NCBI RefSeq assembly: GCF_058153355.1
Contig: NZ_CM177019.1
Strand: one strand, 5' to 3'
Length of the DNA stretch: 64,000 bases
Within the stretch, counting starts at the first letter, position 1; the number at the start of each line of letters is the position of its first letter. The translations under genes and the position numbers were made by a program. Below, piece by piece: positions 1,302 through 59,322 of this stretch. Below the pieces are notes generated by a model. The model had not been told where the DNA came from and searched no databases. It was given only the letters and a program-made list of their open reading frames with translations.

Positions 1302-2354
1302 TTATTCTGTTGGATCAGGAATGCCCAGTGTTGTATTCAGACGTCCACGAGACTTATTAAAGATCTTATTGCCATTTTCACGTCCTGCCCGACGGCGTCG
1401 CTGTTCTTCTGGCGGTAACGCGCTTTCTTCGCAGCAAATCTCACTGCAACAACCTTTGTATTTTTCTGCACATACTGGACACTGAATAAACAGCAGGTGG
1501 CAGCCATCATTTTTACAGTTGGTATGGCTGTCGCACGGCGCACCGCACTGGTGGCAATGCGCGATAATCTCATCAGAGATACGTTCGCCCATCCGCTCGT
1601 CAAACACAAAATTTTTGCCAATAAAACGCACCGGTAAGCCCTGCTCGCGCGCCTTACGGGCGTATTCAATAATTCCGCCTTCGATATGCCAGACTTTATT
1701 GAATCCGTTATGTTTCATCCAGGCACTGGCCTTTTCACAACGAATGCCGCCGGTGCAGTACATAACGATTTTTTTATCTTTATGTTCCTGCATCATCTCG
1801 ACTGCTTTTGGTAGCTGCTCACGGAAGGTATCTGCCGGAATTTCCAGCGCGTTTTCAAAGTGCCCCACTTCATACTCATAATGATTACGCATGTCGATAA
1901 ACAGTGCATCGGGATCGTCAAGCATGGCGTTCACTTCTGCCGCTTGCAGATACTCACCAACATTACTGGCATCGAAGTGAGGATCGTCAATACCGTCGGC
2001 TACGATGCGATCGCGCACCTTCATGCGCAGTACCCAGAAGGATTTCCCGTCATCATCCAACGCGATATTCAGGCGTAAGCCATCTAAAGCCGGGTCGAAG
2101 CCGTATAGCTGTGCGCGAAATGTTTCAACATTGCTCGCAGGTACACTGATTTGCGCGTTAATCCCCTCATGCGCCAGATACACTCGCCCAAAAATATTCA
2201 GCGCAGTAAACAGCTGATATAAAGCGTCACGGGTCGCTTTCGGATCGGCGATGTGGAAATACTTATAAAACGAAATGGTGGTGCGCGGTTCGCGCTCAGC
2301 CAACATTTTGGCTTTCAGCGCGTCGTTGGAAATGCGGTTGTGTAACACTGGCAT
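1302..2354 (-). CDS. trhO: rhodanese-domain tRNA uridine(34) hydroxylase TrhO/YceA (350 aa from internal ATG)
   Basis: ORF 1302..2408; start MPVLHNRIS gives 350 aa; rhodanese active-site motif CTGGIRCEK; C-terminal Cys-rich tail. Confidence 0.85.
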
Positions 2355-2578
2355 GGTGTACGGTTCCTGCGAGATGGGAAAGTAAAAATCCGCGGCATGA
2401 TATAGCAATTATCGATAATTAACATCCACGCATTTTACGCTACATTTGTGCATTAAAAATTATTTATTATTTACAAGCGCGGTAATTTCGCCCAGTCTTC
2501 AGCCACAAATTTTGGTTGCGGGCGAAAAAATGCGACAATACATACAATTGCCCGAATAGGTTGAAAAACAGGATTGAT

Positions 2579-3499
2579 ATGACGAATCTACCCAAGTTCT
2601 CCACCGCACTGCTTCATCCGCGTTATTGGTTAACCTGGTTGGGTATTGGCGTACTTTGGTTGGTCGTGCAATTGCCCTACCCGGTTATCTACCGCCTCGG
2701 TTGTGGATTAGGAAAACTGGCGTTACGTTTTATGAAACGACGCGCAAAAATTGTGCATCGCAACCTGGAACTGTGCTTCCCGAAAATGAGCGAACAAGAA
2801 CGCCGTAAAATGGTGGTGAAGAATTTCGAATCCGTTGGCATGGGACTGATGGAAACTGGCATGGCGTGGTTCTGGCCGGACCGCCGAATCGCCCGCTGGA
2901 CGGAAGTGATCGGCATGGAACACATTCGTGACGTGCAGGCGCAAAAACGCGGCATCCTGTTAGTTGGCATCCATTTTCTGACCCTGGAGCTGGGTGCGCG
3001 GCAGTTTGGTATGCAGGAGCCGGGCATTGGCGTTTACCGCCCGAACGATAATCCACTGATTGACTGGCTACAAACCTGGGGCCGTTTGCGCTCAAATAAA
3101 TCGATGCTCGACCGCAAAGATTTAAAAGGCATGATTAAAGCCCTGAAAAAAGGCGAAGTGGTCTGGTACGCACCGGATCATGATTACGGCCCGCGCTCAA
3201 GCGTTTTCGTCCCGTTGTTTGCCGTTGAGCAGGCTGCGACCACAACCGGAACCTGGATGCTGGCACGGATGTCCGGCGCATGTCTGGTGCCCTTCGTTCC
3301 ACGCCGTAAGCCAGATGGCAAAGGGTATCAGTTGATTATGCTACCGCCAGAGTGTTCTCCGCCGCTGGATGATGCCGAAACCACCGCCGCGTGGATGAAC
3401 AAAGTGGTCGAAAAATGCATCATGATGGCACCAGAGCAGTATATGTGGTTACACCGTCGCTTTAAAACACGTCCGGAAGGCGTTCCTTCACGCTATTAA
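2579..3499 (+). CDS. lpxL: lipid A biosynthesis lauroyl acyltransferase LpxL/HtrB (306 aa)
   Basis: ORF 2516..3499; internal start [17 protein letters not shown] gives 306 aa; acyltransferase family sequence. Confidence 0.85.
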
Positions 3500-3506
3500 A
3501 TCTCCC

Positions 3507-3537
3507 ATGCCGGATGCTTCAAAATGGCATCCGGCAT
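3507..3537. terminator. stem-loop downstream of lpxL (putative terminator or REP-like hairpin)
   Basis: atgccggatgc ... gcatccggcat inverted repeat. Confidence 0.4.
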
Positions 3538-3670
3538 TCCCACAGCAAATCCTCCTGATTTAGCGATAAAAGCTCTCTGGATTGCGCCCCCTGGAAGTCG
3601 GGCGCATAATTAGTGTGCTTATCTTTTCTTCTTATGTTCACCGCGCCTGGCGCACCAACAGCGGATTGCT

Positions 3671-4897
3671 ATGTCACCCTGTGAAAATGACACCCCTATA
3701 AACTGGAAACGAAACCTGATCGTCGCCTGGCTAGGCTGTTTTCTTACCGGTGCCGCCTTCAGCCTGGTAATGCCCTTCTTACCCCTCTACGTTGAGCAGC
3801 TTGGCGTTACGGGCCACTCCGCCTTGAATATGTGGTCCGGTATTGTCTTCAGCATTACATTTTTATTTTCGGCCATCGCCTCACCGTTTTGGGGTGGGCT
3901 TGCCGACCGTAAAGGCCGAAAACTCATGCTATTACGCTCTGCCCTTGGGATGGGCATCGTGATGGTGTTAATGGGGATGGCACAAAATATCTGGCAGTTT
4001 TTGATCCTGCGGGCGCTGCTTGGTTTGCTTGGCGGATTTGTTCCCAACGCTAATGCTCTTATCGCCACACAAGTACCGCGTAATAAAAGCGGCTGGGCGC
4101 TGGGTACGCTCTCCACAGGCGGCGTTAGCGGCGCGTTGCTCGGCCCAATGGCTGGTGGTTTGCTTGCCGATAGCTACGGCTTACGTCCGGTATTCTTTAT
4201 TACCGCCAGTGTGCTGATACTTTGCTTTTTCGTCACCCTGTTTTGCATCCGAGAAAAATTCCAGCCTGTCAGCAAAAAAGAGATGCTGCACATGCGAGAA
4301 GTGGTGACATCACTTAAAAACCCGAAACTGGTACTCAGCCTGTTTGTCACCACGTTAATCATCCAGGTGGCGACGGGTTCAATTGCCCCTATTCTGACGC
4401 TGTATGTACGCGAACTGGCGGGTAACGTCAGTAATGTCGCCTTTATCAGCGGCATGATCGCCTCGGTGCCAGGCGTGGCTGCTCTGCTGAGTGCACCACG
4501 ACTCGGCAAACTTGGCGATCGAATCGGACCCGAAAAGATCCTGATTACAGCGTTGATCTTTTCTGTACTGCTGTTGATCCCAATGTCTTACGTTCAGACA
4601 CCGTTACAACTTGGGATCTTACGCTTTTTGCTCGGTGCTGCCGATGGTGCACTACTCCCCGCCGTACAGACACTATTGGTTTACAACTCAAGCAACCAAA
4701 TCGCCGGGCGTATTTTCAGCTATAACCAATCGTTTCGTGATATTGGCAACGTTACCGGACCATTGATGGGAGCAGCGATTTCAGCGAACTACGGTTTCAG
4801 AGCGGTATTCCTCGTCACCGCTGGCGTAGTGTTATTCAACGCAGTCTATTCATGGAACAGTCTGCGCCGTCGTCGGATACCCCAGGTATCAAACTGA
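3671..4897 (+). CDS. mdtG: MFS multidrug efflux transporter MdtG (408 aa)
   Basis: ORF 3671..4897; 12-TM MFS-like hydrophobic profile; length and synteny. Confidence 0.85.
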
Positions 4898-4979
4898 TTT
4901 TTCGCCTTTCATACTTGCAATAGCGGAGAATCAGCTATCCTTTTCCCTGAAACCTCATCAACTCAAAGGGAGAATCGTG

Positions 4980-5354
4980 ATGACCATGTACGCAACGCTT
5001 GAAGAAGCCATTGACGCTGCACGCGAAGAATTTCTTGCAGACAACCCCGGCATCGACGCCGAAAATGCGAATGTGCAACAGTTCAATGCCCAAAAATACG
5101 TTTTGCAGGACGGCGACATCATGTGGCAAGTTGAGTTTTTTGCCGACGAAGGGGAAGAAGGTGAATGTTTACCTATGCTTAGCGGTGAAGCCGCGCAAAG
5201 TGTTTTTGATGGCGACTATGATGAGATAGAAATCCGCCAGGAGTGGCAGGAAGAGAATACATTACATGAATGGGACGAGGGGGAATTTCAGCTTGAGCCA
5301 CCGCTGGATACGGAAGAAGGACGGGCAGCTGCTGATGAGTGGGATGAACGCTAA
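4980..5354 (+). CDS. msyB: acidic protein MsyB (about 124 aa)
   Basis: ORF 4977..5354; extremely Asp/Glu-rich; synteny between mdtG and yceK. Confidence 0.8.
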   Translation: MTMYATLEEAIDAAREEFLADNPGIDAENANVQQFNAQKYVLQDGDIMWQVEFFADEGEEGECLPMLSGEAAQSVFDGDYDEIEIRQEWQEENTLHEWDEGEFQLEPPLDTEEGRAAADEWDER

Positions 5355-5582
5355 TTACTCATACGAGCCATGATGAATGTCGATCGGCAGCAGTAAAGTA
5401 TCAAAAACCAGGGAGAATGGCAGATCAAGGATCGTGACGTAACGCCAGGCGGAGTCACGCACATCCCATTGCACACCGGGATAATATTGGTTGCCATGCC
5501 CCTGCCCCGGTATAGTGCGACTAATGATGCTGCCACAGCCACACAGCAAGGTCACCATGATGCTCACCATAATTAAACGCAT
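5355..5582 (-). CDS. yceK: small lipoprotein YceK (75 aa)
   Basis: ORF 5355..5582; lipobox LLCGCGS near N-terminus; synteny. Confidence 0.75.
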   Translation of the reverse strand: MRLIMVSIMVTLLCGCGSIISRTIPGQGHGNQYYPGVQWDVRDSAWRYVTILDLPFSLVFDTLLLPIDIHHGSYE

Positions 5583-5608
5583 TTGATACCCCTTCCGTAA
5601 AAAAATAC

Positions 5609-5621
5609 CGGCATAACGCCG
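5609..5621. repeat. 13-bp target-site duplication, left copy (cggcataacgccg)
   Basis: identical 13-mer flanks both IS4 ends (second copy 7048..7060). Confidence 0.85.
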
Positions 5622-7047
5622 TAATGCCAGTCAGTTAAGCAACTGACTGGCTCTTTTTCGGGGCTGTGGGGTATTTCCAGGGCCTCTCCTTTACCACTCT
5701 CGGGAAGGCCCTTTCCCTTCTTGTCGGTAATTTCACAAGTTGTCCCATACTTGCAAGATCGCGCATCAGCTCCGGTATACGTCCCGGTGAAGCGCCCTGC
5801 AATGTCATCAGCATTCTCATCACCATTCCGCATGATTCTGAGAAACTCAGTTGATTCGGCCAGTAACCTTTCAGATGTTCCGCCATTTTAATCATCTGAT
5901 ATCTCACCAGATTATAAGCCAGTAAGACACCCCACAGCTCTTGCTCCACAAGCTCCGGCTTTTTACTTCTCAGCGTCAGCCTGCTCAGTTGCATCGTCTG
6001 TTTTATCTCCCTGTATCCCAGTTCGATTTCCCAGCGATGACTGTACAGATCCGCCATTTCTCCTCCGGGGAAGCGCATGGCGTCCGTCATCGACGTCAGC
6101 AGATGGCAGACTTTTCCTTTGCGCGTCACGGTCAGCAGGCGGGCTGTCACTTCATTTCCCAGTCCCGGCCACTTTTTTCGTGCCTGCGGGCTGGTTTTCA
6201 GCTTCACCAGATGATCGCCTTTACCCAGTTTTCTGATCTCTTCATATTGCGCTCCCTTTCTGAGAGGTATCATCCAGTGGCGGTGTTCTCCCGCCAGGCT
6301 CCAGGCATTTAACAGTCCCAGTGAGTAATAACCTTTATCCATTAACGTCAGAGTGTTATCGCCGGTTTGTTCTATAAGTTGCTCAGCAAGCTCATTTTCG
6401 CTGTTCTTCATCGTGCCGAAGGCTGCAGCCGTCAGCAGATGGCTGGTCAGTTCCATCTGGCAGACCATTTTGACCTGCGGGTAGAGCGCCGGGTTCCCGG
6501 CATGTGTCTGGCGGGGGAAGGCTGCATCGTTCTCTGGTGTATCCGGTGTGCGCCAGAACACACCATCGATGGCCAGCAGGGTCAGGCCGCACCAGTGCGG
6601 ATGCGGCGTGGCGTTATGCCAGAGCTGCGCTGTTTTCGTGAACACGCGGCGGACAGCCTCACTTCCCAGGCGCTGGCGGGCCTGAATAACGGCACTGGGG
6701 GCAACGAAGGGGCGATTGCCCGGCAGCATGATGTCCAGGCGATTCACAATCTGGTGAAGAGGTTCTTTACGCTCAAGCGCCATGCCAACAATACACCAGA
6801 CCATCATTTCGAGGGGAAGACGGCGCTTGCGTAGCGTTACAGTACCTGATTCGGCAAGGCAACGAGAGATGAGTTCGGGGTCGAGGTAATCCCCCAGAGA
6901 AGTCAGTGGGTTACGCAGAGAATCGTAACGGGATACCAGATCAAGAGCCTGTCCAATGTGCATAAAAAAATCCGGAAACAAGTGAGCGTTTCCGGATTCT
7001 TACACAGCCACTGGATCGGTCAACTGATCCTTAACTGATCGGCATTA
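5622..7047 (-). mobile_element. insertion sequence IS4, complete 1426-bp copy
   Basis: 1426 bp matches recalled IS4 length; imperfect terminal inverted repeats (taatgccag... / ...ggcatta); single 442-aa transposase; flanked by 13-bp direct repeat. Confidence 0.9.
5635..6963 (-). CDS. insG: IS4 transposase InsG (442 aa from Met [10 protein letters not shown])
   Basis: ORF 5635..6981; sequence recognised as the IS4-family DDE transposase. Confidence 0.9.
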
Positions 7048-7060
7048 CGGCATAACGCCG
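7048..7060. repeat. 13-bp target-site duplication, right copy (cggcataacgccg)
   Basis: identical to 5609..5621. Confidence 0.85.
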
Positions 7061-7085
7061 GTATTTTTATTGGCTCGTTGTTTTT

Positions 7086-7185
7086 GCCTAATGCGGCGTG
7101 AACGCCTTATCCGACCTACAAAATCTTGCAAAATCAATACATCGTAGAACGTTGTAGGCCTGGTAAGCGTAGCGCATCAGGCAAC
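7086..7185. repeat. REP/BIME element (pair of inverted REP units)
   Basis: gcctaatgcggcgtgaacgccttatccgacctac and inverted partner gtaggcctggtaagcgtagcgcatcaggc. Confidence 0.7.
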
Positions 7186-7191
7186 TACGTT

Positions 7192-11374
<4,183 letters not shown>

Positions 11375-11656
11375 TCAGCACGCTGGCTCATGGATTAAGC
11401 ACCTGATTGCAACCGTTTTCACTTTCCGTGCTTCTCCTAAAGACAGAAGCATCGACTTCGTGTAGGGTTTGCCAGCAAATTTATTTATCAACCGTCTTAC
11501 AGACGCTTCCATTCTGGTTAGTGGTAGCGATGATGCTATGCATAAAAACCTTGAAGCCTGCGTCTGGCGCGGTCAGGTCGGTGTCGCTATGGCAACAAGC
11601 CTAAAGGCATAACCCGACAGGGATAAGACGAAAAATCCGAGATTAGTTAACCATAT

Positions 11657-12814
11657 ATGAATCCAGTACCCGCGCAACGTGAATATTTCCTCGACTCCAT
11701 CCGCGCCTGGCTGATGTTGTTAGGGATCCCTTTTCATATTTCTTTAATCTATTCGAGCCATACATGGCATGTGAATAGCGCCGAACCGTCATTGTGGCTG
11801 ACCCTTTTTAATGACTTCATCCACTCGTTCCGCATGCAGGTATTTTTCGTTATATCCGGGTACTTTTCTTACATGCTTTTTTTACGCTATCCCTTGAAAA
11901 AATGGTGGAAAGTACGTGTCGAACGTGTAGGGATCCCGATGTTAACAGCCATCCCCCTACTGACATTGCCGCAATTTATTATGCTGCAATACGTCAAAGG
12001 GAAAGCGGAAAGTTGGCCTGGGCTGTCATTGTATGACAAATATAATACGTTGGCCTGGGAATTAATATCACACCTGTGGTTTTTACTGGTGTTAGTGGTC
12101 ATGACGACGCTGTGCGTATGGATATTTAAACGCATCAGAAATAATTTAGAAAATTCTGATAAAACGAATAAAAAATTCTCGATGGTAAAATTATCGGTGA
12201 TTTTTTTGTGCCTCGGCATCGGTTATGCGGTAATAAGAAGAACGATTTTTATTGTGTATCCACCCATTCTGAGTAACGGCATGTTCAATTTTATTGTCAT
12301 GCAAACGTTATTTTATTTGCCGTTCTTTATCCTCGGCGCACTGGCTTTCATTTTCCCTCATCTTAAAGCCTTGTTTACCACGCCGTCTCGTGGCTGTACC
12401 CTCGCAGCAGCATTGGCATTTGTCGCTTACTTACTCAACCAGCGCTATGGCAGTGGCGATGCCTGGATGTACGAAACCGAGTCGGTGATCACCATGGTCC
12501 TCGGTCTGTGGATGGTGAATGTGGTCTTCTCCTTCGGCCACCGTTTGCTTAACTTCCAGTCAGCGCGGGTGACTTACTTTGTTAACGCATCGCTATTTAT
12601 CTATCTGGTTCACCACCCGTTAACGCTGTTTTTCGGCGCGTACATTACACCGCACATCACCTCCAACTGGCTTGGTTTTCTCTGTGGCCTGATATTCGTA
12701 GTAGGGATTGCGATAATTCTGTATGAAATTCATTTACGCATCCCGTTACTGAAGTTTTTGTTCTCTGGTAAACCGGTTGTTAAGCGTGAGAACGATAAAG
12801 CACCAGCCCGTTAA
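11657..12814 (+). CDS. opgC: glucan succinyltransferase OpgC/MdoC (385 aa, membrane acyltransferase)
   Basis: ORF 11657..12814; polytopic acyltransferase-3-like; divergent from opgGH as in K-12. Confidence 0.85.
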
Positions 12815-12821
12815 GCCGCGT

Positions 12822-14252
12822 TTACAATAACCATTCCACAGGCAATATCGACGCCAGTCTGACCATAACCCGCTTCCAGAAACTGGTAGCGGGTTCTTTT
12901 TTGAGAACAATTTCTTTCTTAGCATGACGATCAACCCAGTTGATCCGCCCCCACCTGTCCAGACGGAGCTGCCAGGCCGCATCATACTGGCTCTGAATAA
13001 AGCGTTTATCAATTAACTGTGCCAGCGTTTCGCTCTCTATCACGAACCCCATTTCAGTATTGAGCAATGTCGAACGTGGATCGAAATTGAAAGAGCCAAT
13101 AAACACCGTTTTACCATCGATGCTAAAGGTTTTAGCATGCAGGCTGGCACCGGAATTACCGGTTATGCCGCGATCGTGTAACGTACTACTTTGTTCACGC
13201 GTCGGCTTGAGTTCATATAATTCCACGCCGTAGCGGAGCAATTTTTTGCGCCAGCGCGCGTATCCGGCATGGACGACAGCAACATCGTTAGCGGCAAGAG
13301 AATTGGTTAGGATCGCAATCTTTACCCCTTTTCTCACCATCCGTAAGAGTTGCGCCACACCTGCGCGTGTCGGTACAAAATAGGAAGAGATAATATCGAT
13401 GCGTTCACTGGGTGAGCCCATGATATCGAACAGGCGCTGCGGTAACAGTGAATGCCGTTTTGCCTTGCCTTCCCCTTTCGCCGGATCATCACTTAATAAA
13501 CGTGTTTTCGCCCAGATAAGCGGCAACGTTCCCTCAACCAGATGATTTATAAACGGGCTGGATTCCATTTTGCGTAAATAACGATGCGTCATGGCATCGT
13601 CATGCCAGGAGGCGGGTAACTCGATGCGATCCGCCATTTCACCTTCCGGGACATCCAGCACCTGCTGTAAGGGTGAAACCGATTTACAATACCAGTAGCG
13701 GGCGAAATCATCGGCAACGTCCTCTACAACTGGTCCTATTGCCATGACATCTAAATCCGAAAAAAGTGGCTCTTCCCCTGCACCAAAATAGGCATCACCA
13801 ATATTTCGCCCTCCTACCAGCGTCACCACGCCATCGACAGTGAAACTTTTATTGTGCATACGGCGATTGAGACGGGAAAAGTCGGTGATATAACCAAGCG
13901 GACGTAGCAAGCGAAACGAGAAAGGATTAAAAAGCCGGACTTCAATGCGGGGATGACTGTCAAGCAAGCGTAAAATGTCGTCAAGTCCGGGTGTATTGTT
14001 GTCGTCCAGCAACAAACGGACGCGAACGCCACGCTTTGCTGCGGCTAACAGGGCGGAAAACAGTAACCGACCCGACATATCGTCCTGCCAGATGTAATAC
14101 TGAACATCCAGCGTATGCTCTGCCATTTCGGCCAGACGATACCGGGCGGCAAACGCATCCAGACTTTTCTCCAGAGGGAAAAGGCCACACTGACCGGGAT
14201 GTTGCGAACACAGTGGCAGCACCGCGCTCGCCAGCCGGGGCAAATCATTCAT
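12822..14252 (-). CDS. clsC: cardiolipin synthase C ClsC/YmdC, phospholipase D family (start uncertain: ATG 14252 or TTG 14243)
   Basis: ORF 12822..14312; two HxK(x)4D-type PLD motifs (MHNKSF..., [10 protein letters not shown]...); synteny with ymdB. Confidence 0.8.
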
Positions 14253-16647: not shown

Positions 16648-17401
16648 GTTGTCACCCTGGACCTGGTCGTACATTTAAGAAATTAAATCATTTCAACTTG
16701 GTTGTTAACGCAACCTGTATTTTGTTAACGCCGCGTTACGATGGAAAGTATGTCTGCGGAAATATTTTTAATAACTCACCCGCGCGTTGTATTTTTCTTT
16801 TTTTGTTCATACCAAAGTATTAAAACCCACGTAAATACGCTGTTATCTACGCAAAAAAAATATTTTGTTTTCTTTCAAATTTCGGTTTTCCGCAATCAAA
16901 AATCACCAGACAGTCATTCTTCTTGCCCGTCGCTGATTGCTGCGATATGTATTGCGCACAAGCCGTGACAAACCTCGTCTTTTTGCAGTAAAAAATTGTC
17001 CACGGAGGTGTGGAGAAAAAACAAGAACGTTTTACATGACGAAAGGACTACACCGAAATATTTTTATATGCATTATTAGCAAGTTAGCACCATTTGTATG
17101 ATTTTTTAAAATTGTGCAAGAAAAACCAAATGTACAACTTTTCTATCATTTCTAAACTTAATAAAACCTTCAGATTAACATTTTAATATAACGAGTTACA
17201 TTTAGTTACATGTTTAACACTTGATTTAAGATTTGTAATGGCTAGATTGAAATCAGATGTAATCCATTAGTTTTATATTTTACCCATTTAGGGCTGATTT
17301 ATTACTACACACAGCAGTGCAACATCTGTCAGTACTTCTGGTGCTTCTATTTTAGAGGCAGCTGTCAGGTGTGCGATCAATAAAAAAAGCGGGGTTTCAT
17401 C
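16648..17401. promoter_or_regulatory. csgBAC / csgDEFG divergent intergenic control region (about 750 bp, AT-rich)
   Basis: long AT-rich spacer between divergent csgB and csgD; position corresponds to the well-studied curli regulatory region; individual binding sites not mapped here. Confidence 0.75.
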
Positions 17402-22946: not shown

Positions 22947-23034
22947 GGTGAGGTGTCCGAGTGGCTGAAGGAGCACGCCTGGAAAGTGTGTATACGGCAA
23001 CGTATCGGGGGTTCGAATCCCCCCCTCACCGCCA
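22947..23034 (+). tRNA. serX: tRNA-Ser (anticodon GGA), 88 nt with long variable arm
   Basis: ggtgaggtgtccgagtggctgaaggagcacgcctGGAaa...gggggttcgaatcccccctcaccgcca; cloverleaf by eye, CCA-encoded 3' end. Confidence 0.9.
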
Positions 23035-24760: not shown

Positions 24761-25684
24761 TTAACTGTATGCATGTAGCGTACGTTGGCAAAGTGCTGAA
24801 CGTACGCAATCCTCTTTACCGAATCGGACGATCCCGACCATTTCATCTTCTTCGAAACGTTCCAGCGCGTCACTTAATCCGGAGCGCACGCCGCGAGGTA
24901 AATCGCATTGCGTGATATCACCGTTGACAATAACCGTCACGTTCTCCCCGAGGCGGGTTAAAAACATTTTCATTTGCGCGGCAGTCACATTCTGCGCCTC
25001 GTCAAGAATGACGACTGCATTTTCAAAGGTACGTCCACGCATATAGGCGAACGGCGCAATTTCCACCTTCCCTATTTCCGGTCGCAGGCAGTACTGCATA
25101 AAGGAAGCCCCTAAGCGACGGACCAGCACGTCGTAGACCGGGCGAAAATAGGGAGCAAACTTTTCTGCGATATCACCAGGTAAGAAACCAAGATCTTCAT
25201 CGGCTTGCAGAACTGGACGGGTGACGATAATCCTGTCGACATCCTTATGTATCAGGGCCTCTGCCGCTTTTGCGGCACTGATCCAGGTTTTTCCGCACCC
25301 GGCTTCGCCGGTGGCGAATATCAGCTGCTTACTCTCAATAGCCTTCAGATAGTGCAATTGCGCTTCATTTCGCGCGAGGATGGGCGAGGTATCGCGACTG
25401 TCGCGGGCCATACCAATGGCTTCTACGCCGCTCATCTGCACAAGCGAGGTGACCGATTCTTCTTCACGCTGCTTATGGCTGCGCGAATCCCGTCTCAGCA
25501 CACGTTTTGCCTCGCGACGAGCTTTGATCACTGCTTTTTGTCTTCCCATGGAGAGCACCTTGAGTTGTTTGTATTCATCACACGCGCCGTTGGCAGCGCG
25601 ATTATGCGCACGAACATCAGAGGGTTGGCTTCCTTGTAAGCCATAGTTTGCTTTTGGATAAAATGCCGAAAAACGGCTACGCAC
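24761..25684 (-). CDS. phoH: PhoH, phosphate-starvation-inducible ATPase (307-aa ATG ORF; true N-terminus uncertain, see findings)
   Basis: ORF 24761..25684; Walker A GEAGCGKT and PhoH-family core; synteny next to efeB. Confidence 0.8.
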   Translation of the reverse strand: MRSRFSAFYPKANYGLQGSQPSDVRAHNRAANGACDEYKQLKVLSMGRQKAVIKARREAKRVLRRDSRSHKQREEESVTSLVQMSGVEAIGMARDSRDTSPILARNEAQLHYLKAIESKQLIFATGEAGCGKTWISAAKAAEALIHKDVDRIIVTRPVLQADEDLGFLPGDIAEKFAPYFRPVYDVLVRRLGASFMQYCLRPEIGKVEIAPFAYMRGRTFENAVVILDEAQNVTAAQMKMFLTRLGENVTVIVNGDITQCDLPRGVRSGLSDALERFEEDEMVGIVRFGKEDCVRSALCQRTLHAYS

Positions 25685-26014: not shown

Positions 26015-26180
26015 CAGCAGGATTCGCATCAGGCATCAACGCACGAACGCCGGATGCGGCGTGAACGCCTTATCCTGCCTACCGAACCCGCACCGATTGT
26101 AGGCATGATAAGACGCGCAAACGTCGCATCAGGCATCAGCGCACGAACGCCGGATGCGGCGTAAATGCCTTATCCGCCTC
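26015..26180. repeat. REP/BIME cluster (three or more REP units) between phoH and efeB
   Basis: repeated gccggatgcggcgtgaacgccttatcc and inverted copies. Confidence 0.7.
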
Positions 26181-42054: not shown

Positions 42055-42165
42055 TTCATGCCGGATGCGGCGTGAACGCCTTATCCGGCCTATAAAACAG
42101 TGCAAATTCAATATATTGCAATCTTCTGGTAGGCCTGATAAGCATCGCGCATCAGGCAAGCTTAC
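42055..42165. repeat. REP/BIME element between rutG and ymdF
   Basis: gccggatgcggcgtgaacgccttatccggcctac plus inverted gtaggcctgataagc... Confidence 0.7.
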
Positions 42166-58651: not shown

Positions 58652-58824
58652 GGTCAGTGCGTATTTGCAGCGCGACGTTATCAAAGGTGATCATCGTCGA
58701 TTTACAAAAAATACACTTTGCCCCTAAAGGATTTCGCTCCGTCACATCGAATGCCGATGTGCGGTACTGTGAACCATGACAACATGGACAGCGGAAATGG
58801 AGATGTTGAGTAATAACGGCAACC

Positions 58825-59037
58825 TTAGAGCGTAACAACGTTCGCTGCCGCGGGACCACGTTGCCCCTGCTCAATAGAAAATTCAACTTTCTGATTTTCG
58901 TTCAGCGTGCGGAATTCATTGCTCTGGATGGCGGTGAAATGGACGAAAACGTCTTTGCTGCCATCATCAGGAGTGATAAAGCCAAAACCTTTATCTGCGT
59001 TAAACCATTTTACTAAACCAGTCATTTTATTAGACAT
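58825..59037 (-). CDS. cspG: cold-shock protein CspG (70 aa)
   Basis: ORF 58825..59037; CSD with [15 protein letters not shown] motif. Confidence 0.9.
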
Positions 59038-59322
59038 ATTTTACTTCCTTCATTTTGGGCCTTTCGGCAAACAGGGCTTTAATACAGAAACTACTTAGTG
59101 TTCAGGAGAGAGACTCAAAAGAAGGGGATAATGCCTGATAATGAGAACTGCTTTAGTAAACTACTTTGTATGCTGTCTGTCTTTCAAACCGACGCAGCTA
59201 TTAACGCATGATAATTGAGATTAAGCAATTTTTATTTTAGCCGTCCGGCGGTCTTAAATATCGCTGGCTTTATTTTATTAACCCCGTATAGTGCAGCGCA
59301 GTATTTTCAGTAAGGAATTTGT

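Follow-up and report, generated by a model that had tools for sequence, protein, structure and literature searches.

Organization of the opgH/yceK locus

The DNA analyzed here is a stretch of 64,000 nucleotides from contig NZ_CM177019.1 of RefSeq assembly GCF_058153355.1, referred to below as the window. Between the opgH and yceK genes, which are encoded on the same strand, the window harbors a complete and intact IS4 element of 1426 bp (Table 1). The gene on the far side of yceK is msyB, and the yceK-msyB pair is listed as a convergent excludon with overlapping transcripts in K-12 (PMC12288877). The ATG of yceK at position 5582 is 39 nt away from the IS end at 5622, where a preliminary description of this DNA had given a distance of about 40 bp, and 19 nt from the end of the U-tract of the terminator-like structure discussed below. 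The inverted repeats between the opgH stop codon and the insertion site are, judged by the E. coli REP consensus, presumably a pair of REP-like units (BIME), which would explain the lower between-strain identity of this part of the spacer. Rfam and tRNA scans revealed no known RNA within or beside IS4.

Table 1. Positions of genes, IS4 components and predicted signals at the opgH/yceK locus, numbered according to the window.
Feature	Position	Strand	Remarks
msyB	4980..5354	+	convergent with yceK; stop codons abut, no spacer
yceK	5355..5582	-	75-aa DUF1375 lipoprotein (Pfam DUF1375; RefSeq annotation of orthologous loci)
Palindrome half, yceK side	5601..5621		minus strand keeps hairpin CGGC-GUUAU-GCCG, then GUAUUUUUUU
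Weak candidate hybrid promoter toward yceK	5602..5630	-	CTGGCA-17-TATTTT, 8/12; below 9/12, hypothetical
Target-site duplication, yceK-side copy	5609..5621		CGGCATAACGCCG
Complete IS4 element	5622..7047	- (transposase strand)	ends set by terminal repeats and target duplication
Terminal inverted repeat, transposase-distal	5622-5639	+	TAATGCCAGTCAGTTAAG
Inward-facing terminator-like hairpin	5626..5651	+	11 bp; distal terminal repeat and adjacent inverted copy, then TCTTTTTC
IS4 transposase gene (insG type)	5635..6963	-	442 aa + stop; ATG 6963, stop 5635-5637
Inward-facing terminator-like hairpin	6966..7001	-	AAGAAUCCGGAAAC ... GUUUCCGGAUUUUU, then U residues; ends just before transposase ATG
Promoter-like site for transposase	6996..7023	-	TTGACC, 16 nt, AAGAAT, TG upstream; consensus match only
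Terminal inverted repeat, transposase-proximal	7047-7030	-	TAATGCCGATCAGTTAAG
Target-site duplication, opgH-side copy	7048..7060		CGGCATAACGCCG
Palindrome half, opgH side	7048..7068		remnant hairpin without U-tract after it for minus-strand opgH transcripts
Inverted-repeat pair	7086..7183		inverted-repeat scan; between opgH stop and palindrome
opgH (mdoH)	7192..9735	-	847 aa; upstream gene on yceK strand

The IS4 element and its transposase

The earlier assignment of a complete 1426-bp IS4, a member of the IS4 subgroup of the IS4 family, is borne out by the ends, by the transposase and by comparison with the annotated IS4 of E. coli K-12 MG1655, to which the copy in the window is identical at 1423 of 1426 positions. 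The terminal inverted repeats of 18 bp are imperfect, start with TAATGCC and match each other at 16 of 18 positions; besides these two ends, the IS4-end pattern has no exact match in the 64-kb window, where the chance expectation is 0.05. The transposase, of the DDE type, is encoded by a single uninterrupted open reading frame and gives Pfam matches above the cut-offs to Nterm_IS4 (3e-33) and DDE_Tnp_1 (9e-32), with the Y(2)R(3)E(6)K motif present at residue 307. The protein is identical to that of three other strains and differs by two amino acids from K-12 InsG. As previously described, it reads toward yceK, both genes being located on the minus strand. The -10 hexamer of the predicted transposase promoter overlaps the 5' arm of the hairpin at 6966-7001. 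From the intact reading frame and ends, the element is apparently able to transpose; in K-12 mutation-accumulation lines, eight new IS4 insertions have been reported (PMC5009759).

RefSeq often annotates the transposase as a version of 448 amino acids with a TTG start (5635-6981). An open reading frame for 86 amino acids that crosses the IS end (5573-5833) was considered and rejected as a chance frame; it is not in the frame of yceK and stops before a fusion would be possible.

Target duplication and the empty site

Re-inspection of the junctions showed that the IS ends and the 13-bp target duplication claimed earlier are both present: the direct repeat is perfect, and its two copies exactly abut the ends of IS4. 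At fixed positions, a repeat of this kind has a chance probability of about 4^-13. Removal of IS4 and one repeat copy from the window gives the palindrome aaaaataccggcataacgccggtattttt, with the layout aaaaa-taccggc-ataac-gccggta-ttttt, in which both strands read as a hairpin followed by a U-run. Folding of either strand of the reconstructed sequence gives a hairpin of -15.9 kcal/mol, with a stem of 12 bp and a loop of 5 nt. The claim that IS4 has split a terminator-like hairpin on the downstream side of opgH is correct. Comparison with the uninterrupted locus elsewhere confirmed the reconstruction, since exactly this sequence is present at the empty site of close relatives, which were traced through an exact match to the OpgH protein, in K-12, and in 5390 of 5426 complete E. 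coli genomes. The empty-site relatives are 99.1-99.5% identical to the window on the opgH side. An exact match to the MdtG protein was unspecific, with 531 blocks, and returned empty-site genomes only. With 25 kb of flank as the query, the best of the complete E. coli genomes reached about 97% identity and none was near-identical, and the yceK-side junction had no exact match in 100,044 species-representative genomes.

The 13 bp that are duplicated correspond to the loop and the inner stem, the staggered cut having been centred on the hairpin loop. Because of this position of the cut and the length of the duplication, each flank retains a mini-hairpin with a U-tract that faces outward.

Recurrence of IS4 at the opgH/yceK site

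An IS4 element is found at the opgH/yceK terminator in 17 of the 5426 complete E. coli genomes, three times in the orientation of the window and 14 times inverted, and in three further assemblies; in 19 complete genomes, neither the empty site nor a full-length match in either orientation was detected. RefSeq sequences with a copy at opgH (mdoH)/yceK include strains P27_L1_05.20, VL46 and TW10690, with the orientation of the window, and strains MS 21-1, ETEC1738, 32-4 and 789, with the opposite orientation; position and 13-bp duplication are identical to those in the window. These repeated hits in both orientations were overlooked in the preliminary description.

The occupied sites vary in IS4 allele and represent several flank haplotypes, and a K-12-like flank haplotype occurs in three states: with either orientation of IS4 and empty. 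The flanks of the window differ from those of the three strains with the same orientation by 39 mismatches in 1.2 kb, and their nearest counterparts are empty-site genomes, which suggests an independent insertion event in the lineage of the window. The opgH/yceK and adhE/tdk terminators, which have been hit repeatedly and independently, could serve as lineage markers, yet such markers are prone to homoplasy. The insertion is thus real but ordinary, since both the element and the site are already known from RefSeq annotation of E. coli. It adds one more natural case to a site annotated in other strains and by itself has little import beyond annotation.

Target preference of IS4

The position of IS4 within a terminator is not a coincidence but represents the standard type of target for this element, a point missed in the preliminary description. 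Nineteen insertion events of IS4 in E. coli, at 17 loci, were sampled. In 16 of them the motif AAA-N20-TTT is present, with its centre no more than 1 bp away from that of the target duplication, compared with 10 of 3800 control registers (0.26%), and the site in the window fits this motif. Two of the three insertions that do not have the exact motif miss it by a single base or by one base of spacing. Target duplications of the sampled E. coli copies are 11-14 bp long, or about one helical turn. Most of the fitting targets are perfect hairpins of 10-13 bp with A and T runs at the 3' ends of genes, for example at adhE/tdk, eno, rpoD/mug, degS/mdh, raiA/bamD, pgi/yjbE, pdeA/nupC, typA and aroA. 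In other genera, elements that share these terminal repeats have a T-run in the flank at +11..+30 in 46 of 67 cases (2 of 67 for the controls), and a further 77 such elements are located inside REP-like palindromes. Specificity in the target arms has been noted (PMC2266710), and De Palmenaer et al. are cited in support of the target preference.

Because IS4 targets terminators composed of an A-tract, a hairpin and a T-tract, its presence inside a palindrome is to be expected and unremarkable. The quantitative confirmation of this targeting (AAA-N20-TTT) is a by-product of the analysis, and none of the results speaks against the target preference or the identity of the element.

Predicted terminator function of the palindrome and hairpins of IS4

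The intact palindrome is predicted to be a bidirectional intrinsic terminator for the opgGH operon and, most likely, for msyB on the opposite strand. On the minus strand, the opgH stop precedes it by about 115 nt. On the plus strand, a scan from position 5300 gave no terminator-like site ahead of the palindrome, which lies beyond the convergent yceK and is the first such structure after msyB. The likely role of msyB as partner in this predicted bidirectional function was overlooked before. A simple terminator scan misses the palindrome, because extension of the stem uses up the T-run; in the interrupted locus, the scan gives a minus-strand site at 5621..5609. The remnant hairpins fold at -6.5 kcal/mol (yceK side) and -7.5 kcal/mol, as compared to -15.9 kcal/mol for the intact structure.

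Two terminator-like hairpins lie inside IS4, near its ends, and both face inward. The one at 5626-5651 stands in the path of plus-strand transcripts from msyB, and its structure is kept in seven element types from six genera, including one compensatory variant. The hairpin at 6966-7001, which the scan missed because maximal stem extension again consumes the T-run, stands in the path of minus-strand transcripts from opgH. These structures would halt transcripts of opgH and msyB, for which the split site no longer offers a hairpin with U-tract, within a few tens of bases of their entry into IS4, and transcripts leaving IS4 would meet a weakened remnant of the original terminator. The 3'-end mapping supplements of eLife 62438 contain no entry for yceK or opgH, and no transcript evidence for the 3' ends of opgH and msyB or the 5' end of yceK was found in the literature.

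A broader proposal is that IS4 and its relatives with the same ends in gamma- and betaproteobacteria are dedicated seekers of terminator and REP hairpins that bring replacement terminators along, with outward mini-terminators on the flanks and inward ones at both ends, one of them formed by a terminal repeat, so that the host units are closed and the element is insulated. At this locus, yceK would then be uncoupled from upstream transcription and the balance between yceK and msyB would be shifted. As a whole we consider this proposal unlikely. If it were true, the recurrent insertions in both orientations could amount to natural variation in the expression of a gene for an outer-membrane lipoprotein.

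Possible effect of the insertion on yceK

The interpretation that we prefer, with a probability of roughly 0.85, is that an intact IS4 transposed into a preferred AAA-N20-TTT target, here a bidirectional terminator, and that the result is a tolerated, near-neutral and insulated intergenic insertion which brings no regulatory innovation. Located in a safe intergenic site, the insertion would be essentially without penalty. The yceK gene would be cut off from transcription that normally passes the terminator, and what remains would be low-level read-through of the transposase transcript or the activity of a weak hybrid promoter. Lowered or unchanged expression of yceK is therefore more likely than an increase. 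Some effect of IS4 on yceK is possible, and a reduction is equally conceivable.

A polar effect, in which the insertion mainly silences or lowers yceK by placing 1.4 kb of DNA, including an IS-internal terminator, between the gene and upstream transcription that normally crosses the palindrome or begins ahead of it, is less likely than not. In the empty locus, the yceK ATG follows the U-tract by 19 nt, which gives no room for a promoter in between, and no sigma-70-like promoter was found in the 172-bp spacer upstream; transcription of yceK would therefore have to cross the insertion point, and the terminator-like hairpin at 7001-6966 lies in its path. However, yceK is expressed and inducible in K-12, by about 4-fold with a LolCDE inhibitor (PMC5105897), and the origin of this transcript was not found, the literature that mentions yceK being without promoter or operon data. 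Moreover, if the native -10 element is the TATTTT that is retained in the flank, the insertion would swap the -35 region only.

The opposite outcome, a regulatory mutation in which IS4 turns yceK on or up through read-through or a promoter at the IS end, with an antisense effect on msyB as a consequence, is unlikely. The arrangement of the locus is suggestive of it, since the transposase gene and yceK are co-oriented, with 13 nt between the transposase stop and the IS end and 39 nt from there to the yceK ATG, and since only 4-5 bp (-6.5 kcal/mol) of the 12-bp terminator stem (-15.9 kcal/mol) are left between them. The overlap of the yceK and msyB transcripts in K-12 (PMC12288877) would provide the route to msyB. 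The junction is also spanned by the candidate hybrid promoter with 8 of 12 matches, of which the -35 hexamer CTGGCA lies inside the IS terminal repeat and the -10 hexamer in the flank; the opposite orientation of IS4 gives an equivalent hybrid, TCGGCA-17-TATTTT. Against this outcome, IS transposase promoters are typically weak, and a scan for sigma-70-like promoters that face outward from IS4 gave none at the threshold of at least 9 of 12 hexamer matches. Furthermore, a residual hairpin of 4-5 bp with a U7 tract persists between the IS end and yceK, directly upstream of the ribosome-binding site. In 14 of the 17 genomes the transposase points away from yceK, and persistence of IS4 at this site thus is independent of driving yceK. 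The claim that IS4 drives or alters yceK expression by read-through or an outward promoter hence finds no support in the sequence.

That the element arose from a sequencing or assembly error, for instance a wrongly joined repeat, is practically excluded even though IS elements commonly cause misassembly and the source is represented by a single assembly, because the perfect 13-bp duplication exactly at both ends is the signature of real transposition, the same insertion with its duplication occurs in the 17 independent complete genomes and three further assemblies, and an independent contig in GCA_043012465.1 is 100% identical to window positions 13735-7054 and stops at the IS junction. The break of this contig suggests that IS4 is present in more than one copy.

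The insertion can be regarded as a natural experiment on the transcription of yceK, a poorly characterized envelope lipoprotein gene with no evident promoter and a start codon just past a terminator.

Comparison with known IS4 insertions and other palindrome-targeting elements

The IS4 of K-12 (insG; 4,502,090-4,503,515 of NC_000913.3) has the same length of 1426 bp, the same terminal repeats and a single 442-residue transposase, with 99.8% nucleotide identity to the element in the window; the difference amounts to three nucleotides and two amino acids. The locations are different, yjgZ/nanX in K-12 and opgH/yceK in the window. Both target duplications fall within 11-14 bp and both sites have AAA-N20-TTT centred on the duplication. 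Whereas the target in the window is a perfect 12-bp palindrome, the K-12 target has the proper spacing but forms a poor hairpin.

In the classical work of Klaer et al. in 1981 and Mayaux et al. in 1984, IS4 reportedly was found in both orientations at a single site in galT and in the attenuator terminator of pheST, with AAA-N20-TTT as the consensus. This rule is reproduced by the present sequence data, and at opgH/yceK, in agreement with those early cases, IS4 enters a terminator hairpin in both orientations. The galT and pheST cases are different in that they were selected mutations with a phenotype, whereas the insertion in the window is natural, unselected and located in an intergenic terminator.

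Similar to the IS4 in the window, IS1397 and ISKpn1, which target BIME loops, and ISRm22, an IS4-family element that targets REPs of Sinorhizobium, are inserted centrally in a short extragenic palindrome; insertion sequences that target palindromes and REPs were described by Tobes and Pareja in 2006 (PMC1525189). Relatives with IS4-type ends in Pseudomonas also sit in REP-like palindromes. Unlike these REP-targeting elements, the IS4 in the window skipped the adjacent REP pair at 7086-7183 in favor of a terminator hairpin flanked by A and T runs.

Identity of the element and its empty site

The preliminary description reported a complete 1426-bp IS4 with a 13-bp target duplication, about 40 bp from the start of yceK. 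Reading of window positions 5401-7400 and a repeat search confirmed the element base for base; the duplication is perfect and abuts both ends, and 39 nt separate IS4 from the yceK ATG. The 18-bp terminal inverted repeats, TAATGCCAGTCAGTTAAG and TAATGCCGATCAGTTAAG, match at 16 of 18 positions. Scanning the 64-kb window with the exact end pattern returned these two ends only (0.05 matches expected by chance) and no second IS4 end. Compared with the IS4 annotated in K-12 MG1655, the element matches at 1423 of 1426 positions. Its transposase has the Y(2)R(3)E(6)K motif, and IS4 copies in three other strains encode an identical protein. All characters of IS4 that can be examined in silico are present: the length and sequence identity of the element, its ends, the domains and motif of the transposase, the length of the duplication and the motif at the target. 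The initial observation is correct and the event is of an ordinary, already known kind: the same opgH/yceK insertion is annotated in RefSeq genomes.

Coordinates of IS4, its internal signals and the neighbouring genes in the window
Feature	Position	Strand	Remarks
msyB	4980-5354	+	
yceK	5582-5355	-	
Target duplication	5609-5621 and 7048-7060		perfect 13-bp direct repeat CGGCATAACGCCG, immediately flanking the IS4 ends
IS4, complete	5622-7047		1426 bp; ends set by inverted repeats
Terminator-like hairpin	5626-5651	+	terminal repeat and adjacent inverted copy, then TCTTTTTC
Transposase ORF	ATG 6963, stop 5635-5637	-	442 aa; Pfam Nterm_IS4 and DDE_Tnp_1
Terminator-like hairpin	7001-6966	-	U-run ends directly before transposase ATG
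Promoter-like site of transposase	7023-6996	-	TTGACC-16-AAGAAT; overlaps 5' arm of hairpin 7001-6966
opgH	9735-7192	-	

Removal of IS4 and one repeat copy yields aaaaataccggcataacgccggtattttt, a palindrome with a 12-bp stem, a 5-nt loop and A and T runs outside (-15.9 kcal/mol on either strand). The palindrome proposed earlier as the original site is indeed the sequence of the K-12 locus, and a match covering 80% or more of the reconstructed 661-bp empty locus is present in 5390 of the 5426 complete E. coli genomes. The window lineage is absent from this set, the closest member having ca. 97% identity over 25 kb. The exact OpgH protein is found on 17 contigs; four loci among the matches listed have 99.1-99.5% identity on the opgH side and an uninterrupted palindrome. 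Another contig, from GCA_043012465.1, is 100% identical to window positions 13735-7054 and terminates at the IS4 junction, the manner in which short-read assemblies typically break at repeated elements. An assembly artefact is ruled out by the target duplication and this independent contig.

Relatives with the exact OpgH protein have 99.1-99.5% identity to the window on its opgH side (7048-13735) versus 97.8-98.6% on the yceK/mdtG side (1755-5621), and strain R32_14_1F has the opposite pattern across the site (99.2% and 97.0%). This side-dependent identity indicates a recombination breakpoint in or close to the insertion site or REP region. A REP pair lies between opgH and IS4.

The genes flanking IS4 are ordinary E. 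coli genes, and elsewhere, too, the window has the appearance of normal E. coli core DNA. NCBIfam comparison of ORFs at 43-58 kb identified agp, yccE, cbpA, torDAC, torR, torT and torS; the remaining ORFs look like csg, efe, putAP and rut genes by position and length. Rfam and ARAGORN matches (22947-23034, 17255-17346, 24766-24959, 26102-26179, 42094-42136 and 58771-59193) comprise tRNA-Ser(GGA), the sRNAs ES056, naRNA4 and ES036, a Ysr251-like antisense RNA and the cspA thermoregulator.

Target preference and recurrent insertion

Insertion into a palindrome is normal behaviour for IS4. The first other copies retrieved (pgi/yjbE, obgE/dacB, pdeA/nupC) all lie centrally in an A-tract/hairpin/T-tract, and two exact-protein look-ups with the transposase supplied 20 more copies with flanks. 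An AAA-N20-TTT target rule for IS4 has been known since the 1980s. The sampled insertions reproduce it: in 16 of 19 distinct E. coli events (17 loci), the centre of the motif is no more than 1 bp from that of the duplication, as compared to 10 of 3800 control registers. Perfect hairpins of 10-13 bp located at the 3' ends of genes make up most of the targets (adhE/tdk, eno, rpoD/mug, degS/mdh, raiA/bamD, typA and aroA).

This preference for hairpins and T-runs reaches beyond E. coli. The IS4 terminal repeat was found at more than 120 loci in species-representative genomes of Vibrio, Shewanella, Pseudoalteromonas, Methylophaga, Comamonas, Vogesella and Pseudomonas. Outside REP-like palindromes, 67 non-redundant flanks were compared: 46 have a T-run at +11 to +30, versus 2 of 67 controls; 77 further loci sit within such palindromes.

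The same 18-bp repeats also bound non-autonomous elements of 123-211 bp, which are multicopy in Pseudomonas and Comamonas genomes and have duplications of ca. 10 bp. Examples are found in three loci of Pseudomonas sp. ok272 (L065 5182-5326, L066 2307-2451, L069 6974-7118) and in the comparison loci L018 (2148-2270), L059 (776-898) and L021 (5328-5538). Some are central in REP-like palindromes (GGGCAAGCC.../AGGCTTGCCCGCGAA), others in A-tract/hairpin/T-tract terminators.

At opgH/yceK, IS4 occurs in complete E. coli genomes three times in the orientation of the window and 14 times inverted; the look-ups added three assemblies with the same 13-bp duplication. Insertion follows the identical base in all nine occupied complete-genome loci retrieved, eight of which have the same duplication, while in the ninth (strain VL46) a 1425-bp IS copy shifted the automated read-out. 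A K-12-like flank haplotype exists with IS4 in either orientation and empty. Compared with the three strains that have IS4 in the same orientation, the window flank shows 39 differences in 1200 positions; it is closest to empty-site genomes (7-9 differences). IS4 alleles vary between occupied sites. Together, haplotype states, flank distances and alleles argue for at least two independent insertions, and probably several. The adhE/tdk terminator was likewise hit repeatedly in three E. coli assemblies (L151, L153, L157). The duplications CCCCTTCTGGGG, CCCTTCTGGGG and TCCCTTCTGGGG differ in length or register, which indicates independent insertions at one hairpin.

The split terminator and transcription of neighbouring genes

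The opgH/yceK palindrome is predicted to be a textbook bidirectional intrinsic terminator. The earlier proposal that IS4 splits such a structure stands as regards the A-tract/hairpin/T-tract 3' of opgH on the minus strand; the terminator role is inferred from sequence. On the plus strand, msyB adjoins the convergent yceK without a spacer, so the palindrome is the first terminator-like structure 3' of msyB within the stretch scanned. The yceK-msyB pair is among the convergent overlapping transcripts of K-12 (PMC12288877).

Where IS4 is absent, only 19 nt separate the terminator U-tract from the yceK ATG (empty-site loci L129 6544-6720 and L007 407-580; window 5355-5621 for comparison), and no sigma-70-like promoter was detected in the 172-bp opgH-yceK spacer. 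The gene is expressed and inducible (PMC5105897). With IS4 present, the sequence offers two possible routes to yceK: read-through from the transposase gene over the residual hairpin with its U7 tract, or a hybrid promoter candidate matching 8 of 12 consensus positions, in which CTGGCA of the terminal repeat is spaced 17 nt from TATTTT of the flanking DNA. The suggestion that IS4 drives yceK by readthrough or an outward promoter is speculative and without positive support. The promoter scan found no outward promoter of at least 9/12, and in most natural insertions at this site the transposase is directed away from yceK; activation is therefore rated unlikely. Reduced yceK expression is somewhat easier to envisage, though still doubtful.

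Both flanks retain the loop, an inner stem of 4-5 bp (-6.5 and -7.5 kcal/mol) and an outward-facing U-tract. Transcripts from opgH or msyB would reach a remnant without a U-tract, followed by the terminator-like hairpins inside IS4. The plus-strand hairpin, formed by the transposase-distal terminal repeat (window 5622-5660), is conserved across six genera in seven types of element, including a compensatory GG/CC variant in a Methylophaga MAG. The comparison loci with this hairpin are L025, L036, L049, L053, L057 and L117; it is mostly succeeded by a T-run facing into the element.

On the minus strand, the promoter-like site overlaps the 5' arm of the other hairpin, so that the transcript of IS4 itself would lack this arm and transcripts reading in would include it. 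Such an arrangement would allow the element's own transcript to escape and block read-in transcripts. IS4 thus appears to be insulated from its surroundings, with the host transcription units staying closed. Protection against read-in transcription is known from other insertion sequences, and the promoter/hairpin overlap of IS4 resembles it.
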